This document shows, piece after piece, positions 18,968 through 62,204 of a stretch of 64,000 nucleotides of DNA. The translations under genes and the position numbers were made by a program. This stretch comes from Vulcanimicrobiota bacterium. Its GTDB lineage: Bacteria; Vulcanimicrobiota; Vulcanimicrobiia; Eremiobacterales; Eremiobacteraceae. The notes below the pieces were generated by a model. It was not told the DNA's origin. It searched no databases and was given only the letters and a program-made list of their open reading frames with translations. The stretch is from the NCBI GenBank assembly GCA_963805945.1, contig CAWDVP010000002.1, positions 288,001-352,000 on the forward strand, written 5' to 3'. Every line of letters starts with the position of its first letter. The first letter of the stretch is position 1.

Positions 18968-19009
18968 CCGTGTCCCTCGTGTCGTGCGTTGTGGAGCGGG
19001 CGAGTTCAC

Positions 19010-21438: not shown

Positions 21439-21452
21439 GTCCTCGCACGACG

Positions 21453-21826
21453 TTGGCCGTGCGCACATTCGACAGCTTGCGCGGCCGGCGAGAATTCACG
21501 ACTAGTGATCCGCCGCGGCACGGCGGCCGCGGCAAACGCGCTCACGGTGTTCGGCTTCGCGCCGCGACCAGAAACGCGCCGCACGAAAGTGGGCATCGTC
21601 GTGCCGAAGACCGTGGGCAAAGCGGTCGATCGCAACCGGCTGCGTCGCCGGTGCAAAGCGATCCTCGATCGCGCGGCGCTCGGTGCGCCGCATCGTTGGT
21701 ACGTCATCCAGTGCCGGCCCGGGGCGGCCGCGACTGACATTTGAAGAGTTGGGCAGACATCTCATGAGCGCTTTGGCTCGCTCGCAACGCCCGCGGCCGG
21801 CGGGGAACGCCCGGAGCCGCACGTGA
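21453..21826 (+). CDS. rnpA: RNase P protein component (frameshifted)
   Basis: [30 protein letters not shown]; between rpmH and yidD. Confidence 0.85.
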
Positions 21827-22029
21827 ATCCGCTGGTCGTCGCGATCCGCGCCTATCAGCGCACGCTGTCGAAGATGTTGCCGAGCGCGTGCCGCTTCACG
21901 CCCTCGTGCTCGGAGTACGCCGCGCAGGCGATCGAGCGCTACGGCAGCGCGAAGGGTTCGGCGCTCGCCGCCAAGAGGCTGCTGCGCTGTCAGCCCTGGC
22001 ATCCCGGCGGCCACGATCCGGTCCCGTAG
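21823..22029 (+). CDS. yidD: Membrane protein insertion efficiency factor
   Basis: [28 protein letters not shown]. Confidence 0.95.
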
Positions 22030-22049
22030 ACGTTAGATAAAGAAGAGGC

Positions 22050-23773: not shown

Positions 23774-23798
23774 CACCGCGTCGCCCGGGAGCGACCGC

Positions 23799-25185
23799 AT
23801 GGATGCTGCTGCGCCGCACGACGACGACACGATCGCCGCGATCGCGACGCCGCCTGGCGTTTCGGCCGTGGCGATCGTCCGCATCTCGGGTTCGCGCTCT
23901 TTGGCGGTCGCGTCGGCGTGTTTCGAAGCATCGCGCTCTGGTACGTTACGCCATGCGCGCGCGCGGCGCGGCTGGGTGCGCGATCCTTCCTCGGCCAACG
24001 GTTTGACGACGCGCTCGCCTTAGCTTTTCTCGCGCCGCATTCGTATACCGGAGAAGATGTCGTCGAATTGCAGGTGCATGGCGGTGCGGGCGTCGTCGCT
24101 TCCGTGCTCGCAAGCTCGCTTGCAGCTGGGGCGCGCCTCGCAGCGCCGGGAGAATTCACGCGGCGCGCGTTCGTCAACGGCAAGCTCGACCTCGCACAGG
24201 CCGAAGCGGTCGCCGATCTCATTGATGCGCAGTCGCGCCAGGCCGCGGCCGCGGCGGCGGTGCGGCTCGAGGGTGCACTCGGTCGCGCGCTGCGCGAATA
24301 CCGCGAAACGCTCACCGCGCGGCTCGTCGAGATCGAGGCGCACGTCGACTATCCCGATGAAGTGCCGGCGCCGGATAGCGCCGCGTTGGCGCGCGTCGTG
24401 CGCGAACAGCGCGAGGGCGTGGACGCGCTTTTGGCGGGCTCAGGTGCGGCGCGCGTTTTGCGCGACGGGCTCGACTGCGTCATCGCCGGGCCGCCCAACG
24501 CCGGCAAGTCGTCGCTGCTCAACGCGCTCGTGGACGCGGAGCGCGCCATCGTTTCGGAGACGCCCGGCACGACGCGCGATATCGTCGAGGAACACGTCGC
24601 CGTCGATGGCGTCGTGCTGCGTCTGCGAGATACCGCCGGATTGCGCATCACCGCGGACGCCGTCGAAGCCGAGGGTGTCGCGCGCGCCAAGCGCGCGATC
24701 GGCGATGCCGAGCTCGTCGGTAATCGTGCTCGACGGTTCGCGTGCGATCGATAGCGAGGCGAGCGATCTGCTTGCCGCGAGCGCCGGCCGGCCGCGGCTC
24801 GTACTGCTCAACAAACTTGATCTCGGCGATGACGGTGCGCGCGCATTCGCACGAACGTCTTCGGATATCACGTTCATCGGCGGCAGCGTGCGCTGGCCGA
24901 AGACGGTGAGCGCGCTGCGCGCGGAGATCGCGCGACTGGGTTGGGGCGGCGGTGCGATCGCGGCGAACAATGTCTTGGTGGCGAATGGGCGTCAGATCGA
25001 GGCGCTCACGCGCGCCCGTGAAGCGCTCGCGCATGCGCAGGCGACGCTCAATGCAGGCGTGCCCATCGATATGCTGGCCGGCGACATGCGCGCGGCGATC
25101 GCGGCTATATGGCGAGGTGACAGGCGAGACGGTGACCGAGGACGTGCTCGACGGGATCTTCTCTCGCTTCTGCGTCGGCAAGTAA
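23799..25185 (+). CDS. mnmE: tRNA modification GTPase (frameshifted)
   Basis: DTIAAIATPPG, SYTGEDVVE, GEFTRRAFVNGKLDL, GPPNAGKSSL, PGTTRD, DTAG, IFSRFCVGK. Confidence 0.93.
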
Positions 25186-25284
25186 GAAGGTTGGTTAGCG
25201 TCCGAGCGCATGGTAGTCGAACACGACCCATTTACACAACGCGCGCAACAGACAAAATACGAATGTTAGAAGGTTGAGTTAGAC

Positions 25285-25698
25285 TTGGCGGTCGATATTG
25301 TTCAGCTGCAAGACTTCTTGGCGGCTGCGATTTACGGTCTTCTACACGGCGAGACGGCCGTTGCTAGAACGGTGACCATCTGGATTCTCTCCTGGGTTTC
25401 GCGAAGATCCAAGCTTCACTTTGCGAAATCAGTCGAGTTCACTGCGCTTGCTCGACGCTGTTCAACAGCGATGGTGCAGCGGGGAACGTTCTCCGCCCCG
25501 ATGGGGCAGTGCTCGACAAGAATGAACTCATCGTTTGCGACTGAACCTGATTATGTCGCGTTTAAAGTTGATTTCGCAAGACCGGTTATTCTTCGCTCAG
25601 TCGGCCCCGAACGTTTGAAAGGGGATCCCGGCTCGACCTTGGCAGAGTTTCTGGCTTGGAGCGGTTTGGGTACCGCATCCAATACAGCGTTAGGATAG
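25285..25698 (+). CDS. Hypothetical protein in a lower-GC islet
   Basis: ORF only; atypical composition; no recognised motif. Confidence 0.35.
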   Translation: MAVDIVQLQDFLAAAIYGLLHGETAVARTVTIWILSWVSRRSKLHFAKSVEFTALARRCSTAMVQRGTFSAPMGQCSTRMNSSFATEPDYVAFKVDFARPVILRSVGPERLKGDPGSTLAEFLAWSGLGTASNTALG

Positions 25699-25725
25699 CC
25701 CGCCGGAGCAAAGGAATGCGATGAT

Positions 25726-25950
25726 ATGCTAGGATTCGAGCAACCAAAGCCCACATTTCTCAAGGCCTGGTTGTCAAGTCTGTTCATCGCGATCCCGGGC
25801 GCGCTAATCGCGATCTACGGGTTTCACACGGCTGTGCTCGGGACCGTCTTGGTAGCATTTTTGGGAAGTCTCATCATGGCGTACAGCATCAACCAGCGCG
25901 TGAGCAATGACTGGCGCGCGAAGGACACGCTCGATAGGTACAAGCGCTAG
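25726..25950 (+). CDS. Small two-TM membrane protein
   Basis: AAGGA upstream; two hydrophobic segments. Confidence 0.55.
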   Translation: MLGFEQPKPTFLKAWLSSLFIAIPGALIAIYGFHTAVLGTVLVAFLGSLIMAYSINQRVSNDWRAKDTLDRYKR

Positions 25951-26003
25951 CGAAGTCCGCGACTAGGACCGCCGAGCGCATCCGCGAACCAACCGCATCG
26001 GAT

Positions 26004-27867
26004 ATGAAGAACGATTTCGACGTCATCGTCATCGGCGGTGGCCACGCCGGCTGCGAAGCCGCGCTCGCATCCGCCCGCATGGGGGCGCGCACGCTCGTCG
26101 TCACCGGCAGGCTCGACACGATCGGGCTCATGCCGTGCAATCCGTCGATCGGCGGACCGGCCAAGGGCCAGCTCGCGCGCGAAGTGGATGCGCTCGGCGG
26201 CGAGATGGGCCGCGCCATCGACGACACATATCTTCACGTGCGCTGGCTCAACGAGAGCCGTGGCCCCGCCGTGCGGGCGTTGCGCGCGCAGGCCGACAAG
26301 GCGGCATACGCCGCGCGCATGCGGGCAGCGCTGGAAGCGCAGCCGGATCTCTTCTTATTGGAAGCTTTTGTCGTCGACCTGAAGACCGACGCCGGTGGCA
26401 TCATAGGTGTTGTGCTCAAGGACGGTTCGTTCCTTAGAGCGGGACAAGTCGTGCTATCGGCCGGCACCTTTATGAGCGGCAAACTGTTCGCGGGTGAGCG
26501 ATCGACGGCCGGCGGTCGCGTCGGCGAGGCGCCCAGCATCGGGTTGTCTGACGCGTTGCGTCGACTCGGCTTTCCGACGGTGCGTCTGAAGACCGGCACG
26601 CCGCCGCGCGTGCACGCGGACTCGATCGATTTCACAAAGACGGAAACGCAGCCGCCGAGTCCGGTGCCGCTCGCCTTCTCCTATCGCAGCGTGCCGAAAT
26701 TTCCCGGACCGCAACTCGCGTGCCACATCACGAGCACCAACGATGCGACGCACGCGCTGATCCGCGCAAATTTGCATCGCTCGCCGATGTACGGACTCGG
26801 CGCGATCGAAGGCGTCGGCCCGCGCTACTGTCCGTCGATCGAAGATAAAGTGGTGAAGTTCGCGCACAACCCGAGTCATCAGATCTTTCTCGAACCGGAA
26901 GGCCGCGAAACGAAGTGGACATATGTCGGCGGATTCTCGACGTCGCTGCCGGACGAAGTGCAACTCGAGATGCTGCACACGTTGCCCGGACTCGAACATG
27001 CGGAGATGCTGCGCGCCGGGCTACGCGGTGGAATACGATTGCGTGCCGCCGACCGAACTACGCGCAACGCTAGAGACCAAGCGGGTTAGCGGGCTTTATC
27101 ACGCCGGCCAAGTGAACGGCACCTCGGGCTATGAAGAGGCCGCCGCGCAAGGCATCGTCGCCGGCATGAACGCAGCGTTGCGCGCGCAAGGTCGCGAGCA
27201 GATCACGTTTTCGCGCGCGACGTCGTACATCGGCACGCTCATCGACGATCTCATCACGCAAGGCGCAGCCGAACCATATCGCATGTTGTCGTCGCGCGCG
27301 GAGTTCCGATTGTTGCTGCGTCACGACAACGCCGACACGCGACTCATGCCGATCGGACGCGCCGTAGGTTTGGTGGACGACGCGAATTGGCGCGATTTCG
27401 AGTGGCGCATGGCGACGATGGAGCGCGAGCGCGCGCGTCTCGAAGCGACGCGAGCGAGCGCCGACATGCGCGCTCGCTTCGACGCCGAGCCCGGCGCGAC
27501 GCTGGCACAGTTGCTGCGCCGTCAGGATTCGGAGTACGCCGCGATCGCGGGGGACGACGCGATTGATCCGGAGCTCGGCGAGCGGTTGGTCACCGAACTG
27601 CGCTACGAAGGCTATATCCGCCGCCAGGCACAGGCGGTCGAGCGCCTCGCCAAGGCCGAACATGCCAGGATCCCCGCTGATTTCGACTACGGCTCGTGCC
27701 GCGGGCTCTCGCGCGAAGCGACCGAGAAGCTGGGAGCGCTGCGGCCCGAGACGGTCGGCCAGGCCGGGCGCATCCCGGGCGTGACGCCGGCAGACGTGGC
27801 GGTCGTGTCGGTCTACCTGCGCCGCTGGCGCGAGGCCCCGCCCGCGCTCGCCGGCGCCGCGGTGTGA
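26004..27867 (+). CDS. mnmG: tRNA uridine carboxymethylaminomethyl modification enzyme (frameshift near 27020)
   Basis: [56 protein letters not shown]. Confidence 0.95.
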
Positions 27868-28529
27868 GCTCGGAAGAGCCGCTCGATCGGCTCATCGATG
27901 GGCTGCGGACGCTCGGCTTCGAGCACCCCGCCCGCCTCGCGGGCCGTCTGGCCGAGTTCTCCGGCCTTCTGCTCGAGGCCAACACCCGGACCAATCTCGT
28001 CGGCGCAAAGACGCTCGAAGGCCTCGTCGCGCCGCACCTGCTCGACAGCCTGGCGCCCCTGGCCGGGCTGCGCCTGGCCTCGCCGGTGGTGGATGTGGGC
28101 AGCGGCGGGGGAATGCCCGGCATCCCCGCGGCGCTTGCCTTTCCCGCGAGCCGCTTCGTGCTGCTCGAGCCCAGGGCCAAACGGGTGGCGTTTCTCAAGG
28201 AAGCAGTGGCCGCGTTAGGGTTGAGCAACGTCGAGATCGAGCAGACCTCGGCGCAGACAGCCTGCAAGACGACCTTGCGGCGGGCGCCGGGACGCTGCTG
28301 GTCCGGGCCCTCGCCAAGCCGGCCGAAACCCTAGAGCTGGCCTTGCCGCTTCTCGCCCCGGCGGGCCGGTCTGATCCTCTACCTGGGGCGCGCGGCGACG
28401 CCCACCATGGCCGAGGTCGCGACGATGAAGCGCCTTGGGGCGCGGCTGGCAGAGGCCCGCCGCCTTCAGGTTCCGTACCTTGAGGCGCAACGGCACGTCT
28501 GGATCATCAAGAGAATAACGGTCGAATAA
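27864..28529 (+). CDS. rsmG: 16S rRNA m7G methyltransferase (frameshifted)
   Basis: [29 protein letters not shown]; follows mnmG. Confidence 0.88.
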
Positions 28530-28566
28530 ATTCGACCGCTCCATGACGCCGAGAAGGGTCGGAAAA

Positions 28567-28582
28567 GGTTTCACGTGGAACA
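28567..28582. other. parS centromere-like site
   Basis: GGTTTCACGTGGAACA; reverse complement TGTTCCACGTGAAACC matches TGTTNCACGTGAAACA at 15/16; 1.4 kb upstream of parA. Confidence 0.85.
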
Positions 28583-28584
28583 TT

Positions 28585-29961
28585 ATGGCTGACTTCGAGC
28601 GCCTGCTCGTCGAGGCACTGCCCGAGGCCGGGGTGTATGCCGTCGGCGGCAGCGTGCGCGACGCCGTGCTCGCGGAGCTTGGTAAGCCCCAGCCCAACGC
28701 GCCGGACCTCGATTACCTGGTCACCGGGCTGCCGCTCGAGACGCTCTTGGAGCGGCTCCGGCCGCTGGGCCGGGCGGAGGTCGTCGGGGCGTCCTTCGGG
28801 GTCATCAAGTTCAGCCGCGACGACGCGACGGTGGACATCGCGCTGCCCCGGCGCGAGCGCTCGACCGGCCCGCACCACCGGGACTTCGAGATCCAGTCGG
28901 CGCCGGATATCCCCATAGAAGAAGACCTGGGGCGGCGGGATTTCCGGATCAACATGATGGCGCGCGACGTCCGGACTGGGGCGATCGTCGACCCCACGGC
29001 GGCCGGGCCGACCTCGAGGCCGGCCGGCTGGACGTGCTGCGCGAGCAGGCCTTCGAAGAGGACCCGTTGCGGATCTTGCGCGGGGCCCAATTCGCGGCCC
29101 GTTTCGAGCTCGTGCCGACGCCCGCAACCCTCGCAGCCATGCGGGATGCAGCCGACAAGGTGCCCAGCGTGGCGCCCGAGCGGATCGCCGACGAGCTGGC
29201 CAAACTGCTCACCCTGGCGGAGCGGCCGAGCGTGGGTCTCGAGCTGCTGCGCGACACCGGGGCGCTGACCTACGTCATGCCGGAGCTGCTCGAGGGCTGG
29301 GGCGTCGAGCAGAACCAATACCACGCCTACTCGGTCTACGAGCACAGCCTGCGGGCGTGCGACGCGGCCCCGGCAGGAGCCGCTCGAGCTACGCCTGGCG
29401 GCGCTGCTGCACGACGTCGGCAAGCCCCGCACCAAGGAGGGTCCGCACTTCTACGGCCACGAGAAGGTCGGGGCCGACATGACCCGGGCGCTGCTCGAAC
29501 GGCTGCGCTTCGGCGGCGACCTCGTCGACCGGGTGACGGGCCTGGTCGCCAACCACATGTACACCACCGCCGACGCCGTCTCCGATGCCGGCATCCGGCG
29601 CTTCATCCGGCGCGTCGGCCGGACAACGTGGACGATCTCTTCGCCTGCGCCACGCAGACGTCGAGGCCACCGGCCTGCCGCCCCACGACGGCGGCGAGAA
29701 CGAGCGCTTCGAAGCCCGGGTCCGAGGGTGCTGGGGGCCGGCCACCCGATGAGCATCGCCGATCTGCAGATCAAAGGAGAGGAAGTCATCGGGATCATGC
29801 GTGACATGGGAGTCGTCGGAGCCGACTTCCAGGGCGACGGACGCGTCGGCGCGGCGCTGCGCGCCTGCCTTGAAGAGGTCCTCGACGACCCCGGCCGCAA
29901 TGAGCCGCAAGCGCTGCGCTCCATTGTGCGCAGCTTTTTTGATTCCAAGAAGCCCAAATAG
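28585..29961 (+). CDS. CCA-adding/poly(A) polymerase-family nucleotidyltransferase with HD domain (frameshifted)
   Basis: YAVGGSVRD, DLDY, EEDLGRRDFRIN, FEEDPLRILR, LLHDVGKP, FYGHE. Confidence 0.85.
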
Positions 29962-29979
29962 GTCTGCATAGCGGGACAA

Positions 29980-30764
29980 ATGGCTAAGCGAAAACCACAG
30001 AGCGGGACGAACCGCACCATCGCCATCGCCAACCAAAAAGGCGGCGTCGGCAAGACGACCACCGCGGTGAACCTCGCCGCCGCGCTCGCGCAGCGCGGCC
30101 GGCGCGTCTTGCTCGTCGACGTCGATCCGCAAGGCAACTCGACCACCGCGCTCGGCATCGAGAAAGCCGCGGTGAAGAAATGCATCTACGACGTGCTGCT
30201 CGCGTCGGCCGGTCTCGATGAAGCGGTGCTCGAAACGAACGTGAGCGGGCTGTCGATCGTGCCCGCGACGCTCAATCTCGCAGGCGCGGAGATCGAACTC
30301 GTGTCAGCGTTGTCGCGCGAACAGCGGCTGCGCACCGCGCTGCAGGCGAGCGCGACGACCTATGACGACATCATCATCGACTGCCCGCCGTCGCTCGGCT
30401 TGCTCACGCTCAACGCGCTCACCGCGGCGCGCTGGCTCATCGTGCCGGTGCAGGCGGAATACCTCGCGTTAGAAGGGCTCGGCCAGCTCACGCGCGTCAT
30501 CGGCCTGGTGCGCACGCATCTCGACGAGGACCTGGAGATCATGGCGTGCTCGTGACGATGTACGACGGGCGCACGAATCTCGCGACGCAGGTGGTCGCCG
30601 AAGTCGAGAGCTTCTTCCCCGGCGTGGTGTTCGCCACGCGCATCCCGCGCACGATCCGGTTGTCGGAAGCGCCGTCGTACGGCAAACCGATCGGCACATT
30701 CGACGCCAAGAGCAAGGGCGCGCTCGCATATGCGGCGCTCGCCGACGAGGTACTAGCGAGATGA
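29980..30764 (+). CDS. parA: ParA/Soj ATPase (frameshift near 30545)
   Basis: [37 protein letters not shown]. Confidence 0.95.
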
Positions 30765-31635
30765 GCAAACAGCGTGGACTCGGCCGCGGTCTGGGGGCGC
30801 TGTTCCCGGGCGCCGATGCGCGCGGGGCGGCGCGTCCAGCGACCGCACGGTGATGGCGCTCGCGCTTCCGACGTCGCGCCGAATCCCGCAGCAGCCGCGG
30901 CGCGCCTTCGAGGGCGACGCACTCGCGCTGCTCGCGCGATCGATGAAGGCGAAAGGCGTGCTGGCCCCGAGCCTGGTGCGCCCCAAACACATCGGGGCCG
31001 CGCACTACGATGACATCGCCGGCGAACGGCGCTGGCGCGCGGCCAAGCTCGCCGGCCTGCGCACCATACAGGCGCTGATGCACGACACGAAGGACGGTCA
31101 CGCGATCGAATTGACGCTGTTCGGACCTGCAGCGCACCGATCTGAACCCGATCGAAGAGGCCTCGGGCTATCGCCGGCTCATCGCCGAGTACGATTTCGC
31201 GCAAGAGTCCTGGCGCAGCGCTCGGCAAAGCGCGGCCCACCATGGCCAACGCGCTGCGCCTGCTGTCATTGCCCGATACGGTGCAGGCGATGGTCCGCGA
31301 CAGCAAGCTCTCCGCCGGCCACGCGCAGGCGCTCGCCGCGTTGCCCGATCCCAAAGCGGTGAAGCTAGCGCGCCAGACGATCGAGCACGGTTGGAACATG
31401 CACGAGCTCGAGCGCGCGGTGTCGCCGCCCGGCTATTCCAGATCGGCGCGCGGCCGCGCAGCGGCCGCCCGAGCTGTCCAGCAGATTTCGCCGAGGTCGA
31501 AAGCCGTTTGCGCTTCGCGCTCGCGACGCGCGTGGCGCTGCGTCGCGGCACACACAGCGGCAGCATCGGATCCACTACGCGGACGATGACGAATTGCAGC
31601 GCATCGTCGACCGCATCTGTCCGGAGGCATCGTGA
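30761..31635 (+). CDS. parB: ParB/Spo0J (error-rich, frameshifted)
   Basis: RGLGRGLGAL, QPRRAF, IAGERRWRAAKLAGL, DLNPIEEA, ANALRLLSLP, LSAGHA. Confidence 0.9.
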
Positions 31636-35697: not shown

Positions 35698-36464
35698 ATG
35701 GCGACACGTTCGAAACCCCTGATCTGCAGCATCGGATCGACAGACCCGACCGCCGCCGCCGGCATCGGTCGCGACCTCATCGTCTACGAGCGACTCGGGG
35801 CGGTCGGGGTCTTCGCGGTCGCCGCCATCACGGCGCAGAACGCGCACGGCGTCTCGGCGTCGACGCCGTCGCGCCGCGCGTCTCGCGGCGCAGCTCAAAG
35901 CGGTCTGGCAACAGCATACGCCGAAGTCATCCGCATCGGCCTGCTCCCCGACGCGAAGCTGATCGCCGTGGTCGCCGCTTCGTGCGTTCGCTGCGCAAGC
36001 GACCGCCAATCGTGATCGATCCGGTGCTGTGCGCGAGTTCGGGCGCACGCTTTCTCGGTGCCGCGGAAGTGCGGGCGCTTGAGCGCTTGCTGCCGCTGGC
36101 GACCCTCGTCACGCCGAACGTCGCCGAAGCCGAGAAGCTCACCGGCCTGCGCATCCGCGACCTCGCGAGCGCCGAGCGCGCGGCCGTACGGCTGCACGAG
36201 CGCGGCTGCGCGGTGCTGCTCACGGGCGGTCACCTGCCTGGCGCGCGCGTCACCGATATCCTCGTCGATCACAGCGGACTGCGGCGCTTCAGCGCGCCGC
36301 GCATCGAGGCGCGCATGCGCGGCACCGGCTGCACGCTCGCCGCAGCGATCGCGGTCTTTCTCGCACAAGAGCTGCCGCTCGAGCAGGCGGTGTCGCGCGC
36401 CCGCAGCTTCGTACGGCGCGAACTGGAGGCGCAGCGCCGCGCGCGGCCAAAGGGACGCGCATGA
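35698..36464 (+). CDS. thiD: Hydroxymethylpyrimidine/phosphomethylpyrimidine kinase (frameshifted)
   Basis: SIGSTDPTAAAGI, AITAQN, VIDPVL, TPNVAEAE, GGHL, RGTGCTLAAAIA. Confidence 0.85.
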
Positions 36465-52018: not shown

Positions 52019-53206
52019 ATGGCCATGCGCATCCTCGCGCTCGTCGTCATCTTCATCGCCGCCACGTTCGCGTGGGTAGTGCTCAGCGCGACGCTCGTCG
52101 TCCGCACCGAGCAAGCCGACACGGAGCAGCGGGCCGCGCTCGGTTCGCTGTGGGGACCGCCGCAGACCCAGTGCGTCCCCGAGTTCACCTATCCGGTCCG
52201 GAAGGGCTTCCAAAGCCTGCCGCTGTCGGCCAGCCGTATCGTTGTCGACCTCGCGCTCGATCAGCGGCGCAAGGGCTTGCGCTGGTACAACACCTATCGC
52301 GTGAGTTTCTCCGGCGCATATCGAGTGGTCAACACGAGCGCAGTGGCGCAGTTGCGGTTCGCGCTGCCGCTGCCGGCGGACAACGGCGTGTACGACGACG
52401 TGCGCGTGCTCGTCGACGGACGTCCGATCGCCAACACGACCGAAGGCGGAGTCGTGCGAGCGGCGTTTCCGGTGCCGCCGGGTCGCTCTGCAGAGGTCAG
52501 CGTCGCCTACCGATCGCGCGGCATCGGCACGTGGTCGTATCGGTTCGGCATCGGCAGCAACACGATCCGCAATTTTGATCTCGTGATGCACACCGACTTC
52601 AAGGCGATCGATTTCCCCGCGGGTACGCTCGCGCCGACGAATGAACGCCAGACGGCGGACGGATGGGAGCTGCGCTGGCAGTATCGCGATCTGGTCGCCG
52701 GCGTCGGCATCGGCATGCTGTTCCCCGAACGCCTGCAGCCCGGTCAGCTGGCGCAACGCATCACGATGTGGGCGCCGCTCTCGCTGCTCTTCTACTTCTT
52801 CGTGATGTTCATCATCACCACGCTGCGGCGCATCGAACTCCACCCGATGAACTACTTCTTCTTGGCAGCGGCGTTCTTCTCGTTCCATCTGCTGTTCGCG
52901 TACACGGTCGATCGCATCTCGATATTGGCCGCGTTCCTCATCTGCTCGGTCGTGTCGATGTTCCTGACGATCAGCTACCTGCGGCTCGTCGTGGGCTTGC
53001 GCTTCGCCGCGGTGGAAGCCGGCCTCGCGCAGTTCTTCTATCTGATTCTGTTCTCGTTGGCGCTGTTCAACGAGGGCTACAGCGGTTTGGCGATCACTAT
53101 CGGCTCCATCGTGACGCTGTTCGTCACCATGCAGTTGACCGCGCGCGTGGATTGGGGCGAGCGCTTCGCCGGCCCGCTCACGCCGGCGGCGGCGGCCCCG
53201 CACTGA
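52019..53206 (+). CDS. CreD-like inner-membrane protein
   Basis: N-terminal TM, extracytoplasmic domain, several C-terminal TMs with LHPMNYFFL..FHLLFAY. Confidence 0.7.
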   Translation: MAMRILALVVIFIAATFAWVVLSATLVVRTEQADTEQRAALGSLWGPPQTQCVPEFTYPVRKGFQSLPLSASRIVVDLALDQRRKGLRWYNTYRVSFSGAYRVVNTSAVAQLRFALPLPADNGVYDDVRVLVDGRPIANTTEGGVVRAAFPVPPGRSAEVSVAYRSRGIGTWSYRFGIGSNTIRNFDLVMHTDFKAIDFPAGTLAPTNERQTADGWELRWQYRDLVAGVGIGMLFPERLQPGQLAQRITMWAPLSLLFYFFVMFIITTLRRIELHPMNYFFLAAAFFSFHLLFAYTVDRISILAAFLICSVVSMFLTISYLRLVVGLRFAAVEAGLAQFFYLILFSLALFNEGYSGLAITIGSIVTLFVTMQLTARVDWGERFAGPLTPAAAAPH

Positions 53207-53307
53207 CTCCGGCGCGGTCGGCGTCCGACCATCGGTCGTGCAGCCCCCGCCGGCCTGCAGGTCGGTCTTGGCGCCTTCACCAATGGCGCGGGCAAGGAGG
53301 GCAGCAT

Positions 53308-53607
53308 ATGCACACCATCGCCGCCATCATGTGGTTCTTCGATGACAGCAGCAACGCGATGAACGCCGCCGCAGTGGGCGGGTTCATGGCAGCGTACGGC
53401 CTCTTCGTCCTCATCCTCGTCGCCTTCGAGATCTTCCTCATGTGGAAGATCGCGACGAAGGCGGGCTATCCAGGCGCCTATAGCCTGTTGATGCTGATAC
53501 CGCTCGTCAACATCATCATCTTCATCATGTTCGCCTTCACCGAATGGCCGATCGAGCGCGACCTCAAGGCGCTGCGCGGCACCCGGGGCACAACGCTCAC
53601 ATCCTGA
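53308..53607 (+). CDS. Small membrane protein
   Basis: AAGGAGG RBS; WKIATKAGYPGAYSLLMLIPLVN..FAFTEWP. Confidence 0.75.
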   Translation: MHTIAAIMWFFDDSSNAMNAAAVGGFMAAYGLFVLILVAFEIFLMWKIATKAGYPGAYSLLMLIPLVNIIIFIMFAFTEWPIERDLKALRGTRGTTLTS

Positions 53608-53644
53608 TCGCGGCAGACGGCCGCTCGAAGTCCACACACAGCAC

Positions 53645-53672
53645 ACGAGCCCGCGCATATGCGCGGGCTCGT
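53645..53672. terminator. Perfect 28-bp palindrome between convergent genes, probable terminator
   Basis: ACGAGCCCGCGCAT-ATGCGCGGGCTCGT. Confidence 0.6.
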
Positions 53673-53700
53673 CCTCTTCTATAGTGCAAGCGCGGCGGAG

Positions 53701-54282
53701 CTACGTGTGCGCGTGCGCCTGGTGGCGCTTGCGGTAGTTGCGCGCCTTGGTCCGATTGCCGCACGTGCTCATGGTGCACCACTGGCCCGAGCGGTTCTTC
53801 GTCTCGTCGAAAAACGCCCACGAGCAGCGATCAGCCGGACATGCTTTGAGCCGGCTCCACGTGCCGCTAGCCATCGCTGCGAAGGCGATCGCCAGGAGCG
53901 TACCGAGCGCGCCATCGACGCCTGGTGCGAGCGGTTCAAGACGCGCGCCGCCATCCGCTTCGAAGCGGGCGGCCAGCTGCGCGCTGCGCGCCGCTCGATT
54001 GAGGGTTTCACGCGCGTTAGGATCCGCAGCAGCGCCGTTGTTGGCGAGGGTGAGATCGCGCAACGCCTCGCGCACGGCGGTCGCCTGCCGCACGTCTGAG
54101 TCCGTCGCCGCCGCGCCACGCTTGAGCAGCCCCGCATCCACAAGCCAGCGCGTCAAGCCGGCCGGGGTCGCGAGGTCGTCGCGGCCGCTCTCCAACTCCG
54201 CGGTATTGATGAAGGCCTGCGGCAGCAGCAGGTCGCCCGGGGCGGGCTTGCTGCCGGCATACTTGAGAAGAAAGTCTTTCAT
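53701..54282 (-). CDS. ABATE/CGNR zinc-finger transcriptional regulator
   Basis: FINT, LTRWL, RLKACPADRCSWAFFDETKNRSGQWCTMSTCGNRTK. Confidence 0.92.
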   Translation of the reverse strand: MKDFLLKYAGSKPAPGDLLLPQAFINTAELESGRDDLATPAGLTRWLVDAGLLKRGAAATDSDVRQATAVREALRDLTLANNGAAADPNARETLNRAARSAQLAARFEADGGARLEPLAPGVDGALGTLLAIAFAAMASGTWSRLKACPADRCSWAFFDETKNRSGQWCTMSTCGNRTKARNYRKRHQAHAHT

Positions 54283-54290
54283 TGCGGCCC

Positions 54291-54408
54291 ATTATACGCA
54301 CTTCGGAGGTTACTTTTCAAGCCTGCTATCCCGTAAAGTGGTACATAGTGTAACTATTTAACTGCATTGACAGGTTACGATAACTAGCGTAGAATGATGG
54401 CAGGTTAC
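54291..54408. promoter_or_regulatory. Divergent promoters with two tandem TAAC-N19-GTTA operators
   Basis: Plus strand TTGACA 54367 -N17- TAGAAT 54390; minus strand TTGAAA-N18-TATAAT (54320 to 54291); operators at 54351-54377 and 54381-54407. Confidence 0.75.
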
Positions 54409-54431
54409 CTCCCACACGAAAGGACACGACC

Positions 54432-54566
54432 ATGGTACATCAAGCTTCGCGCCTCTTCGGGCTCACTCTGGACGAGTACGAGCTGCCGGGCTCGCGCACG
54501 GATCTCGTCAGCATCCCGCGCGGCGCCTCGAGCTCGATCTTCGGCGGCTGGGGAGTCCGGATCTAA
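54432..54566 (+). CDS. Unannotated 44-aa peptide, GWG-motif family member 1
   Basis: GAAAGGA RBS; MVHQASRLFGLTLDEYELPGSRTDLVSIPRGASSSIFGGWGVRI; paralogue at 55777. Confidence 0.7.
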   Translation: MVHQASRLFGLTLDEYELPGSRTDLVSIPRGASSSIFGGWGVRI

Positions 54567-54639
54567 CGGTGGCGCCGTTAAGAGCCGTTAACCTCAGCCG
54601 ACAAGGTCACCGCACGATAACTCCGCCAACAGCGCAGCC

Positions 54640-55563
54640 ATGAACAACAGGATGTTCGTGGCTGCCTTGTCTGTCATCGCGCTCGCGTTGTCAGGTCAGT
54701 CGGCGGCGTCGCCGACCGGCGACCCGGTGATCGCCGCCGCCGGCGACATCGCCTGTGACCCCCGCCCGAGCGCCGCGCCTGAAGCCGATGAGGGCGGCGG
54801 CAGCGTCTGTCACCAGGCGGCGACCGCAAAACTCATCGAGCTCATGCACCCGGCCGCCGTTCTGGCGCTCGGCGACGAACAGTATCCCAACGGCGCGCTC
54901 GATTCGTTCACGGCGGGCTATGCGCCGTCGTGGGGCGCCTTCAAAGCGATCACGCATCCGGCGCCGGGCAACCACGAGTATCACACCCCGGGCGCGGCCG
55001 GATATTTCACGTACTTCGGCGCAGCGGCCGGCCCGCCGGACAAGGGCTACTACAGTTTCGATGTCGGCGGCTGGCACCTCATCGCCCTCAACGCCAACTG
55101 CCAGCCCGCCGGCGGCTGTGGAGCGGATTCGCCGGAGGTGCGCTGGCTCGCGCAGGATCTCGCGGCGCACAAGGGCGCCTGTACGCTCGCCTACTGGCAT
55201 CAGCCGCGCTGGTCATCCGGACCGCACCACAGCGATCCCACGTATGACGCGTTCTGGCAGACGTTGTACGCCGCGCATGCGGACGTCGTGCTCGGCGGAC
55301 ACGACCATGACTACGAACGCTTTTCGCCACAGGCGCCCGACGGCGCGTCGGATCCGGGCAAGGGCATCACAGAATTCGTCGTCGGCACGGGCGGGCGCAG
55401 CCACTATCAGGTCAAGAGCGTCGCACCCAACAGCGAGGCGCGCAGCAACGATACTTTCGGCGTGCTCGAACTCACTTTGCATGCGCACGGCTTCGATTGG
55501 CGATTCGTGCCTGAGCAGGGCAGCACGTTCACCGATTCAGGCAGCCGCGCGTGCCATGCCTAG
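54640..55563 (+). CDS. Secreted calcineurin-like metallophosphoesterase
   Basis: Signal peptide; AAGDIA, LGDEQY, PGNHEY, GGHDHDYER. Confidence 0.9.
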   Translation: MNNRMFVAALSVIALALSGQSAASPTGDPVIAAAGDIACDPRPSAAPEADEGGGSVCHQAATAKLIELMHPAAVLALGDEQYPNGALDSFTAGYAPSWGAFKAITHPAPGNHEYHTPGAAGYFTYFGAAAGPPDKGYYSFDVGGWHLIALNANCQPAGGCGADSPEVRWLAQDLAAHKGACTLAYWHQPRWSSGPHHSDPTYDAFWQTLYAAHADVVLGGHDHDYERFSPQAPDGASDPGKGITEFVVGTGGRSHYQVKSVAPNSEARSNDTFGVLELTLHAHGFDWRFVPEQGSTFTDSGSRACHA

Positions 55564-55776
55564 GTAGCTGAACCTCCAGCCCCGTTTCTGTCCCGCGACC
55601 CCCTCGTGAGCCGCTGGGAACAGGCACGCGGGCCGATTCTCCGTGCCGGGCGGCGCTAACTCCCCGTAGCTGTACCGATTCGACCCCACCCCCTGTGGCC
55701 GTACCATGGACTCAAGCGAAGGCCGGGCGAAAACGCCAGGCCTCGCACACGCGAACTGAAAGGACGTGACCACGCC

Positions 55777-55920
55777 ATGGACGCTAAGAAGAAGAACGAC
55801 TACATGATCGACGACGAGGAAGATCAAGAGAACGGCCTGCTCGACACGCACTCCACGCTGGTGCGGCTGCGCAGGGGCCCCGACACCTCGATCTTCAGAG
55901 GCTGGGGACCGAAGCTCTAA
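55777..55920 (+). CDS. Unannotated 47-aa peptide, GWG-motif family member 2
   Basis: GAAAGGA RBS; MDAKKKNDYMIDDEEDQENGLLDTHSTLVRLRRGPDTSIFRGWGPKL; followed by a terminator. Confidence 0.7.
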   Translation: MDAKKKNDYMIDDEEDQENGLLDTHSTLVRLRRGPDTSIFRGWGPKL

Positions 55921-55931
55921 TGCGGCCCCGC

Positions 55932-55969
55932 AAGAAGAGGGCGCCTGGCTAAGGCGCCCTTTCTTTCTT
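55932..55969. terminator. Bidirectional intrinsic terminator
   Basis: aagaag-AGGGCGCCT-ggcta-AGGCGCCCT-ttctttctt between convergent genes. Confidence 0.75.
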
Positions 55970-55983
55970 GGAGCGGTCGAATC

Positions 55984-56253
55984 TTACGAGCTGGTTCTGC
56001 TCCCGGTGAGCATGCGCACGATGAGCAGCAAGACCACCGCGCCGATAAAGGCGACGACGATGCTGCCGAGGTTGATCCCGGTGACGCCCGCATGACCGAA
56101 CCAATTGAAGATCCAACCGCCGAGGATGCCGCCGATCACGCCGACGATGAGATCGCCCATGAGGCCGCCGGGGCCCTCGCCCTTGACCACCATTTTGCCG
56201 AGCCAACCGCCGATGATGCCGACGACCGCCCATATGAGGAGGTTTTCTAGCAC
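55984..56253 (-). CDS. GlsB/YeaQ/YmgE-family (transglycosylase-associated) membrane protein
   Basis: VVGIIGGWLG, DLIVGVIGGILGGWIF, SIVVAFIGAVVLL. Confidence 0.88.
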   Translation of the reverse strand: MLENLLIWAVVGIIGGWLGKMVVKGEGPGGLMGDLIVGVIGGILGGWIFNWFGHAGVTGINLGSIVVAFIGAVVLLLIVRMLTGSRTSS

Positions 56254-56333
56254 TTCGATCTCCTTTCAGGATAGCGAAGCATATGTACCCTCACTTGCCC
56301 TATGCCGCGGGCGTGCTCCTGGTGCGCCCGAGA

Positions 56334-56370
56334 CAATAAAGAAGGGGCGTCGCACGGATGCGGCACCCCT
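56334..56370 (-). terminator. Intrinsic terminator downstream of the Lys-rich micro-ORF
   Basis: Minus strand AGGGGTGCCGCA-TCCG-TGCGACGCCCCT then TCTTTATTG. Confidence 0.6.
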
Positions 56371-56400
56371 CAAAAGCGGAACAACGCTTACGTTATAGCG

Positions 56401-56451
56401 TTAGTGCTTTTTCTTCTTGGTCGCTTTCTTCTTGGCTTTCTTCTTGGCCAT
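56401..56451 (-). CDS. 16-aa lysine-rich micro-protein
   Basis: GGAGGTGA SD upstream; MAKKKAKKKATKKKKH stop; terminator downstream. Confidence 0.55.
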   Translation of the reverse strand: MAKKKAKKKATKKKKH

Positions 56452-56689
56452 GGTGTGCAGGTCACCTCCATTTCGATTTTCCGGCGCTCGTGGGGCGTTG
56501 CTGTACGCCGCTTGTCTGATTCGGTTTTTCCATCCGCCGGTGCGGAGCCGTGCGGTGTGTACGCGATGCCGAAGAATACGGGGTCATCCACTGGCCCACA
56601 CGCCACACTTGTGTGTGCGCGTGACGTTCCCCTTTCGCCGTCGCGCGTCGGGCAGGAACCTCGCGCGGACGCAAACCATACTCTTCTCT

Positions 56690-57940
56690 ATGCGACTTTC
56701 GCGGCGCGTCGTCGTGACCGGACTCGGTGCGGTCACGCCGCTCGGCAACTCGGTCCCCGAATTCTGGTCGAACGTGGTCGCCGGCAAGAGCGCGGTGGGC
56801 CCGATCACGCTGTTCGACGCCGCGCCGATGCCGACGCGCTTCGCCGCCGAGGTCAAGGGCTTCGACCCGGCCGCGCTCATCGGCAAGAAAGACGCGCGCA
56901 AGATGGACCGCTTCGCGCAGTTCGCCTTCGTCGCCGCCCAGCAGGCGATCGCCGACTCCGGCCTGCAGATCAACGACGACAACCGCGACGATATCGGGGT
57001 CATCATGGGCTCGGGCATCGGCGGCCTTGCGACGATCGAGGCGCAGCACACCGTCATGATCGAGCATGGTCCCGGCAAGTTGTCGCCGTTCCTCATCCCG
57101 ATGCTCATCGGCAACATCGCGCCCGGCCTCATCTCCATCAGCCTCAAGGTGCGCGGGCCGACGCAGACGGCCGTCTCCGCCTGCGCGTCCTCGAACAACG
57201 CGATCGGTGACGCCTACCGTTCGGTGCAGCTCGGCGAGACCCAGGCGATGCTGTGCGGCGGCTCCGAGGCGCCGGTCACGCCGCTCGCAGTGGCGGGCTT
57301 TTGCGCCATGCGGGCGCTCTCGACGCGCAACGACGATCCGGCCACCGCCAGCCGTCCCTTCGACGCCGACCGCGACGGCTTCGTGGTGGGCGAGGGCGGC
57401 GGCGTCATGGTGATCGAGGAGCTCGAGCACGCGCTGCGCCGCGGCGCGCACATCTATGCGGAGATCGCCGGCTACGGCAAGTCGTCCGACGCGCACCACG
57501 TGGTCCAGCCGGATCCGGACGCGCGTGGGGTGACGCTTGCGATGCGGCGCGCGCTCCACGACGCCGAGATCGAGCCCGCGGACGTCTCCCACATCAACGC
57601 GCACGCGACGGGCACCGGCCTCGGCGATGCGGCCGAAGCGCAAGCCATCCACGGCGTGTTCGGCGAGCGCGCCAAAGCGATCCCGGTGAGCGCCAATAAA
57701 TCCATGTTCGGCCACGCGCTCGGCGCCGCGGGCGCGCTCGAGGGCATCTGCGCCATCCTCGCGATCCGCGACGGCATCATCCCGCCGACGATCAACTACC
57801 ACCACGTCGACCGCACCTGCGACCTCGACTGCGTGCCCGACGTCGCGCGCAAAGCCGACGTCGACGTCGTGCTCTCGAATTCGTTCGGTTTCGGCGGCCA
57901 CAACGCCGTGCTCGTCTTCCGCAAGTTCTCTCAAAACTGA
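56690..57940 (+). CDS. fabF: 3-oxoacyl-ACP synthase II
   Basis: RRVVVTGLG, SACASS, DRDGFVVGEG, INAHATGT, KSMFGH, SNSFGFGGHN. Confidence 0.95.
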   Translation: MRLSRRVVVTGLGAVTPLGNSVPEFWSNVVAGKSAVGPITLFDAAPMPTRFAAEVKGFDPAALIGKKDARKMDRFAQFAFVAAQQAIADSGLQINDDNRDDIGVIMGSGIGGLATIEAQHTVMIEHGPGKLSPFLIPMLIGNIAPGLISISLKVRGPTQTAVSACASSNNAIGDAYRSVQLGETQAMLCGGSEAPVTPLAVAGFCAMRALSTRNDDPATASRPFDADRDGFVVGEGGGVMVIEELEHALRRGAHIYAEIAGYGKSSDAHHVVQPDPDARGVTLAMRRALHDAEIEPADVSHINAHATGTGLGDAAEAQAIHGVFGERAKAIPVSANKSMFGHALGAAGALEGICAILAIRDGIIPPTINYHHVDRTCDLDCVPDVARKADVDVVLSNSFGFGGHNAVLVFRKFSQN

Positions 57941-58658: not shown

Positions 58659-61600
58659 GAGTATCGATCTCTTCGGCTTCAAGACGTTCGCAGAGCGGAC
58701 GCGCCTCCTCTTCGAACCAGGCATCTCCGCCATCGTCGGTCCGAACGGTTCGGGCAAGTCGAACCTCGTCGACGCGGTCCGCTGGACGCTGGGCGAGCAG
58801 AGCGCCAAGCAGCTGCGCGGCGGCCGCATGGACGACGTCATCTTCGCCGGCAACAACCGCCGCAGGGCGGTCGGCATGTCAGAGGTCACGCTCACCTTCG
58901 ACAACAGCGACGGCATGCTGCCGGCGCCGTTCGCCGAGATCGCGGTGACGCGGCGCGTCTACCGCAACGGCGAAGGCGAGTACTTCCTCAACAAATCGCA
59001 GGTCCGGCTGCGCGACATCATGGATCTGCTGCTCGGCACCGGCCTCGGCCCCGACGCGTCGGCGATCATCTCGCAAGGCGAGATCGACGCCATGCTTTCG
59101 GCCAAGCCGATCGCGCGCCGCGAGGTGTTCGAAGAGGTCGCCGGCACGAGCAAATATCAGGCGCGCAAGCACGAGGCGCAGCGCCGGCTCGAGCAGACAG
59201 ACGCCAACGCGCTGCGCGTCAACGACTTGGTGGTCGAACTCGATCGCCAGGTGCCGGCCATCGAACAGCAAGTGCGCCGCGCGCGGCGGTATCAGAAAGT
59301 CGTCCAGCGCTTGCGCGATCTCGAGATCCTCTCGTTCGTGCGCAACACGGGCAACCGGCGCGCCGAACGGGAGCAGCTCGCGCTGACGCTCGGCGCGGAG
59401 GAGACGCAGCGCGCCGCCGGCGACGCGGCGCGCGCGAAGCTGGAAGCCGAGGTCAGCGCAGGCCGCTACGAAGAGTATCAGGCGACCCTTGCCCTCGACG
59501 AACGCACCACGGGCCGATCGCAGGCGGCGACCGCCGTGTCGCACGCCGCGGCGGCGCTCGCCACCGCACAGGCGCGCTTCGACGAAGCCGGCCGGCGCCA
59601 CGAGTCGGTCGAACGCACGATAGACGCGGCTGCGTTGGAGATCGCCCGTGCCGAGGCGCGCGTGGCCGAACTCGTCAATCTGCTCGCCGAGACGCGCGCG
59701 CTGCGCGACGAGGCGATGCACGAAGTCGAACGGCGCGCCGCGGCCGAACGCAGCGCGGCCGGCGAGTGGGAACGCGCCTACGGCGTGCTGCGATCGCTGG
59801 AGGATCGCCGCGCGACCGCCGCTGCCGCCGCGGCGGAGATCGAGGCGACCGCCCAGGCGCACCTCACGCACAAGGAGCGGCTCGCCGCGTCGGCCGCGCG
59901 TCTCGACGAAGAGCTGGCGTCGCGCGCAGACGCGCCTGGCCGGCGAGCAGCGCCGCAGCGAAGAGCTCACCTCGACGCCAGGCCGACCTCGAACGCGCTG
60001 TAGAGCGCGCCAAAACCGCCGCCGCCGCCGCCCATGAGGCGCGCGCGAACGCCGCAGCGGCGTTGGAAGCGGCACGCGACGACCTCGAACGAACGCGCGC
60101 AGCAGCGGTGGAGACCGCCGCGCGCGTCACCGCGCTGAGCGAGATCGACGCCTCAGGTCAAGGTCTGCCGCGTGCGGTCTCGATCCGTGCTCGACGCCCA
60201 CAAGGCGCGTTCGCTCAACGGCATACTCGGCGAAGTCGCCGCACCTGGTGGAGACGGACGCGGCGTACGCGCACGCCATCGACGTCGCGCTCGGCCCGCA
60301 TGCGCACGCGATCGTCACGCGGACCAGCGCCGATGCGCACGCCGCCATCGAGCATCTCAAGCGCACCGGCGCGCGGCCGCGCCACGTTCCTCGCGCTCGA
60401 GGCGGTGCGCCAGCAAGAATTGCCGCTGCTCGTGGACGTCGCACAACGCGAAGGCGTCGTCGGGCTCGCCCGCGACCTGGTGCGCTGCGCGGACGCGGTG
60501 CGCCCCGCCATCGAATACGCGCTCGCCGGCGTCGTCGTCGCCGATTCGCTACGCACCGCCCAGCGGCTCGCACGGGAGTTCTCGCACGCGACCGTGGTGA
60601 CGCTCGCGGGCGAAGTCGCGCGCGATGCGGCGATCACCGGCGGCAGCCGCGAGCGACGACAAGGCCCGCTGGCGCGGCGCGTCGCCATCGCCGATCTGCA
60701 GCGCAAGCTCGTAGGCGCGCAAGCCGCCGCCGCCGCCAGCGATGCCGCGCTCGCGCGCAGCCGCGAGGCGCACGCACATGCAGGCGACGCGGCCGAGGAG
60801 GCGGCGCGCGCGCAGAGCGAGGCGCTCGCGCGCAAGCAGGACGTGCTCGTCGGCCTCGAGCGCAGCGCGGGCGAAGCGGCCGGCTTGACGCGGCAGATCG
60901 CGTCGCTCACGGTGGAGCGCGACGCCGCCCACCTCTCGCTCGAGAAGATTGCCGCCGAATGGCGGACGCACGATGAACGGACCACGAAGGCGCGCGCGGC
61001 CGTCGAGGCGCTTGAAAAGGAGCTGCGCGAGGCCGCGGCGGTGAGCGACGCGCTTCAAGCGTCGCTGCGCGAGCTGCGCGAGCAGCATCGGACCGCGGCG
61101 CAAGAGGCCGCGGCGCTCGTCGAGCGCGTCGCCCAGACAGGCGATGACGTGGAGCAGGCGCGCGCCGCGGTCGTCGAGCGCCGCACGGTGCACGCGACCC
61201 GGCTGCGCGAAGCCGCGGACATCAAAGAAGAGCGCGAACGTGCGGACGCCGAGCTCGCGACGGCGCGCGAGCGTCGCGCGGTCGTGGATGCCGCGCTGCT
61301 GGAGATCGAGCACGCGAGCGAGGCGCTCGTGGCGCGCCGCGACGAGCTCATGACATCGGTCCGCGAGACCGAGGAGCGGCTGGCCGCACAGGTCGCACAG
61401 ATGCAGGAGCGTTCGCTCGAACTGGAGCGCACCCGCATCCGCCTCGCCGAGATCGACGCCGAGATGTCGGTGCTGCAGCAGACCTTCGCCCAGAATCCCG
61501 CCACGCCGCAGGAATGCGACGACGTCGCCGCGCGCTACGCCGCCTACCAGGACGACGCGGACGCGGACATCCGCAAGCTGCGCGACGAGCTCGCGCGGCT

Positions 61601-62204
61601 CGGCGGCGTCAACCTCAACGCGCTCGAGGACCAGAGCGCGCTGCTCGAACGGCGCGATTTCCTGCGCAAACAGCTCGACGACCTCGAAGGCGCGCGCCGC
61701 AGCATCCTCGCGGTCATCGCCGAGATCGACGCGGAATCGGTGCGCCAGTTCAACGCGGTCTTCGAGAAGGTCGCGGTCGCGTTCTCCGAGATGTTCGGCA
61801 GGCTGTTCGCGGGCGGCGTCGGCAAGATGTGGCTCACCGCCTCCGACGATCCGGCGCAGGCCGGGGTCGAGATCGCGGCCCAGCCGCCGGGCAAGAAGAT
61901 GCAGAGCCTCAACGCGCTCTCAGGCGGCGAACGCGCGCTCACCGCGGTCGCGCTCATCTTCGCGATCGTGAGCGTGCGCCCGAGCCCGTTCTACGTCTTC
62001 GACGAGATCGACGCGGCGCTCGACGAGGCGAACATCGGACGCTTCGGCACGGTGCTCACCGAATTCGCCAACCGCGCGCAGATCATCATCATCACCCACA
62101 ACAAGGCGACGATGACGCTCGCCGACCGGATCTACGGCGTCACCATGGGGGAGCCAGGAGTGTCCAATCTCCTCTCGCTGGCGCTGGAGCAGGTGGGTGC
62201 CTAG
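58648..62204 (+). CDS. smc: Chromosome segregation protein SMC (frameshifted; first codon reads ATC)
   Basis: YLKSIDLFGFKTF, GPNGSGKSN, hinge AIDVALG..RATFLAL, LSGGE, FDEIDAALD, ITHNK. Confidence 0.93.

Follow-up and report, generated by a model that had tools for sequence, protein, structure and literature searches.

A family of microproteins with a conserved FxGWG C-terminal tail encoded around a phosphatase gene in Candidatus Eremiobacterota

A compact unit carrying two microprotein genes

We analysed a 64 kb stretch of genomic DNA from a Vulcanimicrobiota bacterium (assembly GCA_963805945.1, contig CAWDVP010000002.1, positions 288,001 to 352,000; hereafter the window, whose own numbering is used throughout), in which two short open reading frames (ORFs), here called pepA and pepB, lie on either side of a phosphatase gene and encode peptides with a common C-terminal tail. 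Judged from their sequences, they are very probably genuine, translated and paralogous microproteins, members of a real and undescribed family. pepA (54432..54566, + strand) encodes 44 amino acids and ends in GGWGVRI, and pepB (55777..55920, + strand) encodes 47, with an acidic N-terminus and the end RGWGPKL; we refer to them as the R-tail and K-tail types, respectively. Between them lies the gene of a 307-amino-acid metallophosphoesterase (54640..55563, + strand; PF00149, E 1.3e-8), whose best sequence match in the PDB is a purple acid phosphatase (6git, E 8.4e-8) and whose N-terminus, inspected by eye, resembles a Sec signal peptide. Divergently from pepA is encoded a protein with ABATE and CGNR zinc-finger domains (53701..54282, − strand; PF07336, E 2.4e-16, and PF11706, E 8.7e-18), presumed to be a transcription regulator.

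The intergenic region between the regulator gene and pepA contains two promoter-like sites, each with 11/12 matches to the consensus. One (TTGACA-17-TAGAAT, 54367..54395, + strand) would serve pepA, the phosphatase gene and possibly pepB; the other (TTGAAA-18-TATAAT, 54291..54320, − strand) would serve the regulator gene and contains an AGGTTAC box (54307-54313). This box and two others (starting at 54372 and 54402) form a presumed operator at 54307..54408 (+ strand). The AGGTTAY pattern has three matches in the whole window, all of them in this divergent region of ~100 bp; their total is not above chance expectation (mean 1.7), and it is their clustering that stands out. Both pepA and pepB are preceded by the same ribosome-binding site, GAAAGGAC, at 54418..54425 and 55758..55765 (+ strand), respectively. 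In the window the two genes share a 5′ leader that extends beyond this site. The unit ends in a hairpin followed by a T run, resembling an intrinsic terminator (55936..55962, + strand). The initial annotation of this DNA had described most of this arrangement, namely a secreted metallophosphoesterase flanked by two small ORFs with identical ribosome-binding sites, the first after a promoter with overlapping boxes and the second before a terminator, and our analysis bears it out.

Two further loci of 20 kb each (L001 and L002) were fetched from a genome collection with the strict pepB-type pattern DTSIFRGW. Of 9 matching stretches 4 could be confirmed, and they yielded these 2 loci, so that 104 kb were covered in total. 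These loci are fairly close relatives of the window (66–78% protein identity) and have the same general gene order. The succession small membrane protein, CGNR protein, pepA, phosphatase and pepB is conserved in the three of them, and the genes farther outward differ on both sides. The CGNR protein is 66% identical to its L002 orthologue and the metallophosphoesterase 70% identical to that of L001. Several signals of the unit are conserved as well: two GGTTA boxes spaced 65–66 nt apart are kept in L001 and L002, TTGACAGGTTA and a TAnnAT (−10) hexamer are kept in the promoter region of all three loci, GAAAGG is kept upstream of the pepA ATG in L001 and L002, and GAAAGGACG at the pepB ribosome-binding site is invariant in the three. 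The remainder of the leader shared by pepA and pepB is not kept in L001 and L002. Both also have the hairpin and T run at the position seen in the window. Each of the three loci thus has, downstream of pepB, a terminator and then a convergent gene, with no gene on the same strand.

pepA and pepB are paralogous and selected as proteins

Each of the two ORFs has an unambiguous start, its ATG being the first start codon past an upstream in-frame stop, and each stops three residues after GWG. pepA ends in LVSIPRGASSSIFGGWGVRI and pepB in LVRLRRGPDTSIFRGWGPKL; their last 20 residues align without gaps and are identical at 10/20 positions, exactly as the initial annotation had noted for these two ORFs, which fell below its ORF cut-off and lie where it had placed them. 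It had described the N-terminal halves as unrelated. The N-terminus is indeed variable, but the similarity reaches farther back, the alignment of pepA and pepB spanning ~29–30 residues. The paralogy of both genes was assessed with a profile made from pepB and 17 relatives retrieved by pepB alone, which we ran over 2349 stop-to-stop six-frame segments of the window, L001 and L002. Immediately after the three pepB genes, this profile retrieved the pepA genes (E 2.2e-5 in the window, 0.0013 in L002 and 0.015 in L001), the best unrelated segment having an E of 1.7. In 3/3 loci the R-tail gene is located 5′ and the K-tail gene 3′ of the phosphatase gene, an identical order which implies that the duplication is older than these genomes.

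Pairwise ratios of nonsynonymous to synonymous substitutions (dN/dS) among the three loci were 0.09–0.18 for pepB and 0.09–0.52 for pepA, with dS of about 0.7–1.65, that is, near saturation. Length differences among homologues were of 3 and 6 bases and kept the reading frame. The G+C content at third codon positions (GC3), 0.84 and 0.87 for the two peptide genes, is similar to that of neighbouring genes. TAA is the stop codon in 5/6 peptide genes, against 17/82 long ORFs of the same loci, which, given that orthologues are not independent observations, is no more than a hint that efficient termination has been selected.

These data make it extremely improbable that the similarity is due to chance or to an element acting as DNA or RNA, with small ORFs that encode no functional proteins. 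In the window, the tails of both genes do share two identical 9-base runs (tcgatcttc and ggctgggga), but synonymous differences approach saturation while the residues are kept, and 89 divergent family members (see below) keep the frame to the same stop position. A search of Rfam over 53000-57000 yielded 10 matches, all below the gathering score and none of them on the + strand of either peptide ORF, and the RNA folds upstream of pepB were no better than those of shuffled sequences (z-scores 0.06, 0.28 and −0.19). Chance, for its part, is hard to reconcile with the retrieval of pepA by the pepB-only profile. The near-saturated synonymous change, the frame-keeping indels, the null result in Rfam and the shuffle-like upstream folds thus argue that these sequences are conserved as proteins and not as nucleic-acid elements, in agreement with the original proposal of paralogous microproteins under protein-level selection.

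A family defined by its C-terminal end

Searched alone, pepA retrieved one protein, 93% identical. With pepB alone, 18/18 candidates proved to be matches, one being pepB itself and the others 64–91% identical to it. A profile search against 1.84 billion representatives produced 29 matches at E ≤ 1e-3. Among them, 24 (50% identity representatives) were small, with 39–59 amino acids, and matched at the very C-terminal end; the other 5 were proteins of 282–684 amino acids with many internal partial matches. We inspected two of these five, P0038 and P0045, which are repeat proteins without the tail, and left out P0040, P0041 and P0044. A wider profile, applied via a word index, gave 76 clusters at E ≤ 1 and 72 at E ≤ 1e-3, and the homologues keep the frame. 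Family members measure 36–59 amino acids; four longer calls (P0063, P0078, P0080 and P0091; 59–87 amino acids) end in the same way by eye and look like early start calls. All records bearing an organism name (P0012, P0054, P0062 and P0076, together with L001 and L002) belong to Candidatus Eremiobacterota (Eremiobacteraceae, Tumulicola) and, as judged from them, the family has so far been seen in this phylum only.

We aligned 89 members, leaving out P0002 (identical to pepB), the four longer calls, P0095 and P0102; the cluster members P0047-P0051 and P0104-P0126 are outside this count. In 89/89 sequences the chain ends exactly three residues after F-x-G-W-G, whose F, G, W and G never vary. These three terminal residues follow the pattern [VIP][KR][ILV], and upstream L, V and R are found in 74–83 of the 89 members. 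The motif given in the initial annotation, LV-x3-RG-x3-SIF-x-GWG-x3, therefore stands for its F-x-G-W-G portion and the three final residues, but its RG (R in 50/89 and G in 61/89) and the S of SIF (64/89) are common and variable. The whole conserved region is a basic C-terminal stretch of ~23 residues that can be written R-[ST]-x-L-V-R-x-[PR]-x-G-x-D-[ST]-S-[IL]-F-x-G-W-G-[VIP]-[KR]-[ILV]-COOH. Averaged over the 89 members, the last 23 residues carry a net charge of +2.9 and the preceding part one of −2.9. The acidic character of the N-terminal half is strong in the 62 K-tail members (mean net charge −4.4), that is, the pepB type, and this half is near neutral in the 25 R-tail members of the pepA type. 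The tail of pepB is almost unchanged across its relatives. The 89 sequences contain only 2 cysteines in all, and the peptides have neither a signal peptide nor a membrane span.

Searches for known families and predicted structure

No known family could be recognised for these peptides, as the initial annotation had also concluded. At E ≤ 10, neither Pfam nor NCBIfam had any family matching the two window peptides; when 38 members were scanned, NCBIfam gave 0 matches and Pfam two, each for a single member (E 0.095 and 0.18). PADLOC returned 0 matches, and the best one in PHROGs had an E of 0.013 and concerned one member only. The 89-member profile had 0 matches at E ≤ 10 among PDB chains, and the ESM Atlas contained no usable match for either peptide. 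The strings FGGWGV, FGGWGI, FRGWGP, LFGGWG and IFGGWG were absent from the papers searched, and nothing on such peptides surfaced in listings of papers on CGNR/ABATE proteins, small proteins of Eremiobacterota or GWG motifs. A tblastn search of plasmids with P0066 gave 4 records with E of 3–9; the best Streptomyces place among them lacks the GWG-plus-three end and is a chance match. Several known kinds of peptide signals were weighed and set aside, for want either of a test or of a good fit: a Pup/UBact-like tag, a leaderless bacteriocin, a ComX-type pheromone, the FtsZ C-terminal peptide, the TonB box and the beta-clamp-binding motif.

AlphaFold2 models computed with the family alignment had low confidence for both pepB (predicted local distance difference test, pLDDT, 59.5; predicted template modelling score, pTM, 0.17) and pepA (pLDDT 56.4, pTM 0.12), so neither peptide is predicted to fold on its own.

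A small size, a variable N-terminal part, an invariant C-terminal core rich in aromatic residues and glycines that runs up to the stop codon, and this predicted lack of an autonomous fold would all suit precursors of peptides made on the ribosome and modified after translation (RiPPs) such as PqqA and MftA. The C-terminal part would then be the core of a Trp- or Phe-derived cofactor or signal, with maturases encoded elsewhere; a new Trp-derived cofactor or signal would be as novel an outcome as a peptide ligand of the regulator (see below). We consider this quite unlikely. Known cofactor precursors adjoin their maturases, but the ORFs scanned (those left by a GC3 filter in the window, in L001 3650-11442 and two from L002) included no gene of the radical-SAM, YcaO, ATP-grasp, lanthionine, lasso or peptidase/transporter kinds, which also upholds the earlier remark that no modifying enzyme is adjacent. 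None of the precursor models in NCBIfam or Pfam matched any of the 38 members scanned, and cysteines are nearly absent from the family. Two specific precursor types were rejected. Double-glycine leaders are defined by a conserved G-G cleavage site and a nearby peptidase-transporter; in our peptides only 58/89 members have a G just ahead of the invariant G, pepB having R instead, and no C39 or ABC transporter gene occurs among the ORFs scanned in the loci. Lasso precursors carry Thr at leader position −2 and Asp or Glu at core position 7–9, next to a cyclase and a protease; no Asn-synthase-like or PqqD-like gene lies nearby and position −16 is T in 24/89 only. Counting the core from L(−14) does place a D at position 9 in 79/89 members, but the window pepA has S there.

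Genomic context and regulatory elements

Both peptide genes flank the phosphatase gene within one unit in 3/3 loci, with two paralogues per enzyme gene and no third copy anywhere in the 104 kb covered. Such an association might mean that the peptides are dedicated cytoplasmic partners of this enzyme, holding or inhibiting its precursor before Sec export, in the manner in which barstar acts on barnase. Two observations render this unlikely. The enzyme appears to have a Sec-type signal peptide and the peptides have none, which would restrict their contact to the time before export, when the enzyme is unfolded. In addition, an inhibitor interface would be expected to drift along with its enzyme, yet the pepB tail is almost constant when the phosphatases of the window and L001 have diverged to 70% identity.

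The region between pepA and the phosphatase gene shows several features of its own. Directly after the pepA stop codon lies a TTAAs-N4-GTTAA element (54577..54592, + strand), kept in all three loci amid a variable spacer. The L001 version is a perfect inverted repeat, and the element might serve as another site for protein binding within the operon. The phosphatase gene has no ribosome-binding site within 30 nt of its ATG, and this start codon is enclosed in a hairpin with a 13-pair stem (54634..54665, + strand). The long hairpin as a whole occupies about 54603-54670, and the fold of window 54555-54680 has a z-score of −2.4; a similar hairpin covers the ATG in L002 (about 8876-8936, z −3.9) and is absent in L001. 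Translation of the phosphatase may thus be under control.

One way to exert such control would be an action of the tails in cis, in the ribosome tunnel, where they would stall termination upon a signal, pepA controlling the downstream phosphatase gene as TnaC, SpeFL and SecM do with theirs. The conserved last ~23–30 residues correspond approximately to the tunnel length, and the spacing between the invariant Trp and the stop codon is constant. Moreover, 73 nt separate pepA from the secreted-enzyme gene downstream, which has no nearby ribosome-binding site and, in the window and L002, a start codon sequestered in a hairpin. Nevertheless, we regard an arrest peptide as very unlikely. pepB, with a terminator and a convergent gene after it in the three loci, has nothing to regulate. 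Some 38 nt lie between the pepA stop codon and the hairpin that covers the phosphatase start, which puts this hairpin beyond the reach of a terminating ribosome, and it does not exist in L001. In addition, the tails have no C-terminal proline and the peptide genes mostly use TAA as stop codon, the bias described above.

The 210-nt spacer before pepB contains three conserved GTACC-containing blocks (TTCTCCGTrCC, GTACCGATTyG and CGTACCAT), located at 55640-55720 in the window, about 9895-9945 in L001 and about 9860-9930 in L002; no sigma-70-like promoter was found in this spacer.

The leftmost member of the block shared with L001 is the gene of a small membrane protein of ~99 amino acids (53308..53607, + strand), convergent with the regulator gene. 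The protein is 74% identical over 54 amino acids to the product of L001:7601-7921, an ORF with a weak DUF805 match (E 3.6e-4) below the Pfam cut-off. Between this gene and the end of the CGNR gene, Rfam gave a weak match to the leucine operon leader (53643-53773, − strand; E 7e-4). Its 31.9 bits fall short of the gathering score, 50, and it is probably a terminator-like hairpin. Farther out, a CreD-like protein in the window is unrelated to the 388-amino-acid protein found in L001. On the right side, the convergent gene downstream of pepB encodes a Transgly_assoc (GlsB/YeaQ-type) membrane protein in the window (Pfam) and a Cys/Met-metabolism PLP enzyme in L001 and L002. Upstream of the YeaQ-type gene by 148 nt, on the same strand, the window has a lysine-rich ORF of 16 codons (MAKKKAKKKATKKKKH; 56401-56451, − strand) with a strong GGAGGT ribosome-binding site, without counterpart in L001 and L002 under the same filter.

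The window as a whole is a housekeeping stretch near the replication origin, with dnaA, dnaN, gyrB, rnpA-yidD-yidC, parA, parB, lipid A genes, mreBC, obg, fabF and smc. The intervals 236-5972 and 13877-31586 contain the genes of the origin neighbourhood, a gidA fragment among them, and a lipid A/OmpH cluster (lpxA, fabZ, lpxC and lpxD), which implies an outer membrane. Several housekeeping genes are each represented in the window by a pair of overlapping ORFs (phosphomethylpyrimidine kinase, 35698-36461; SMC, 58828-62204; parA, 29980-30764), which suggests indel errors in the assembly or real frameshifts. Likewise, the CGNR gene of L001 (7970-8603, − strand) and the phosphatase gene of L002 (8880-9860, + strand) are each split by one frameshift, which could be an assembly error or indicate a pseudogene.

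A possible docking function

How might these peptides act? The initial annotation had offered a docking peptide for the regulator or another complex, a signalling peptide and a RiPP-like precursor as examples. We tentatively favour the idea that they are disordered microproteins acting in trans through a C-terminal docking motif and co-expressed with the phosphatase under the control of the ABATE/CGNR protein, a proposal that is in large part inferred and somewhat short of an even chance. The tail would be a short linear motif: a conserved partner in the cytoplasm would have a pocket that accommodates its invariant F, W and glycines as well as the free carboxylate at the C-terminus, three residues on, and the peptide would become ordered only upon binding it. 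The unit would be transcribed from the sigma-70-like promoter overlapped by the AGGTTAC boxes, to which the divergently encoded regulator presumably binds, and the microproteins, made together with the phosphatase, would modulate their target in trans. That pepB is the better conserved copy, and has a terminator but no same-strand gene downstream of it in three loci, speaks for an action in trans; the shared unit and its apparently regulated promoter suggest that the microproteins are made when the phosphatase is made. Candidate partners include the CGNR regulator and a conserved core machine.

Various considerations weigh against this proposal. The binding of the CGNR protein to the boxes is presumed from their position. 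The linkage with phosphatase and regulator rests on three loci that are fairly close to each other, and may be lineage-specific. Two sequences outside the alignment deviate from the fixed end, P0095 having 5 and P0102 having 6 residues after GWG. Low AlphaFold2 confidence is weak evidence of disorder for a chain of some 45 residues. Finally, a C-terminus conserved up to the stop codon would also be expected of a precursor of a peptide-derived cofactor or of a termination-arrest peptide.

A more specific version would make the FxGWG-tail peptides the ligands of the ABATE/CGNR (DUF1470) regulator, the tail docking in the ABATE domain and switching DNA binding at the AGGTTAC boxes upon induction. 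This seems quite improbable. Were it the case, a widespread and uncharacterised family of regulators would gain its first ligand, together with a feedback circuit based on peptides that would likewise be its first. A complex prediction for the CGNR protein (4-row alignment) and pepB (89 rows) scored 0.00 in two runs in which the controls remained unfolded, and so counts neither way.

Whatever their partner, these genes illustrate that ORFs of fewer than 50 codons, often skipped by annotation, can belong to a strongly constrained and lineage-wide microprotein family, here in a phylum, Eremiobacterota, known only from metagenomes. The family would merit a model in protein-family databases for annotation, and its precisely defined C-terminal motif can be synthesised as bait. 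It sits in a compact unit with a secreted phosphatase and a regulator of a class whose ligand and molecular function were unknown according to a structural study (PMC2954205). Identifying the partner could reveal both a new small-protein mechanism and what this class of regulators senses.

Comparison with known systems

The neighbouring regulator is a clear member of the ABATE/CGNR (DUF1470) class, for which the structure of Jann_2411 led to the proposal that the zinc finger binds DNA and the ABATE domain senses a ligand; the available portion of that study leaves the ligand and molecular function as unknown and names no peptide ligand or small-ORF partner (PMC2954205). The link of pepA and pepB with this class is one of position only.

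Regarding peptides conserved up to their stop codon, PqqA and MftA, the precursors of pyrroloquinoline quinone and mycofactocin, are also tiny lineage-conserved ORFs with a strict C-terminal core, but they adjoin a radical-SAM maturase and a peptide-binding partner, none of which occurs within the three loci among the ORFs scanned. TnaC, SpeFL and SecM resemble our peptides in their tunnel-length conserved C-terminus, an invariant Trp with constant spacing to the stop and a variable N-terminus, as well as in the location of pepA upstream of a secreted-enzyme gene; they differ in that pepB has no downstream gene, in the lack of a terminal proline and in a hairpin spacing that does not fit. MgrB, which exerts feedback on PhoQ, is likewise a protein of fewer than 50 residues co-expressed with the outputs of a regulator encoded next door. 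Proteins of the MgrB type are membrane-anchored, however, whereas our peptides have no membrane span and no sequence similarity to them, and a feedback on the CGNR protein is putative.

The docking function that we tentatively propose has its models among C-terminal tails recognised by their receptors, such as the PDZ ligands, in which the Y-x-F tail of outer membrane proteins activates DegS, and the HbYX tails of proteasome activators. The peptides described here have another motif sequence, a free-standing carrier of 40–50 residues and a receptor domain that has not been identified. They nevertheless have in common with these tails the fixed distance of invariant aromatic and glycine residues from the chain end, a hydrophobic last residue and a carrier that is presumably disordered otherwise.

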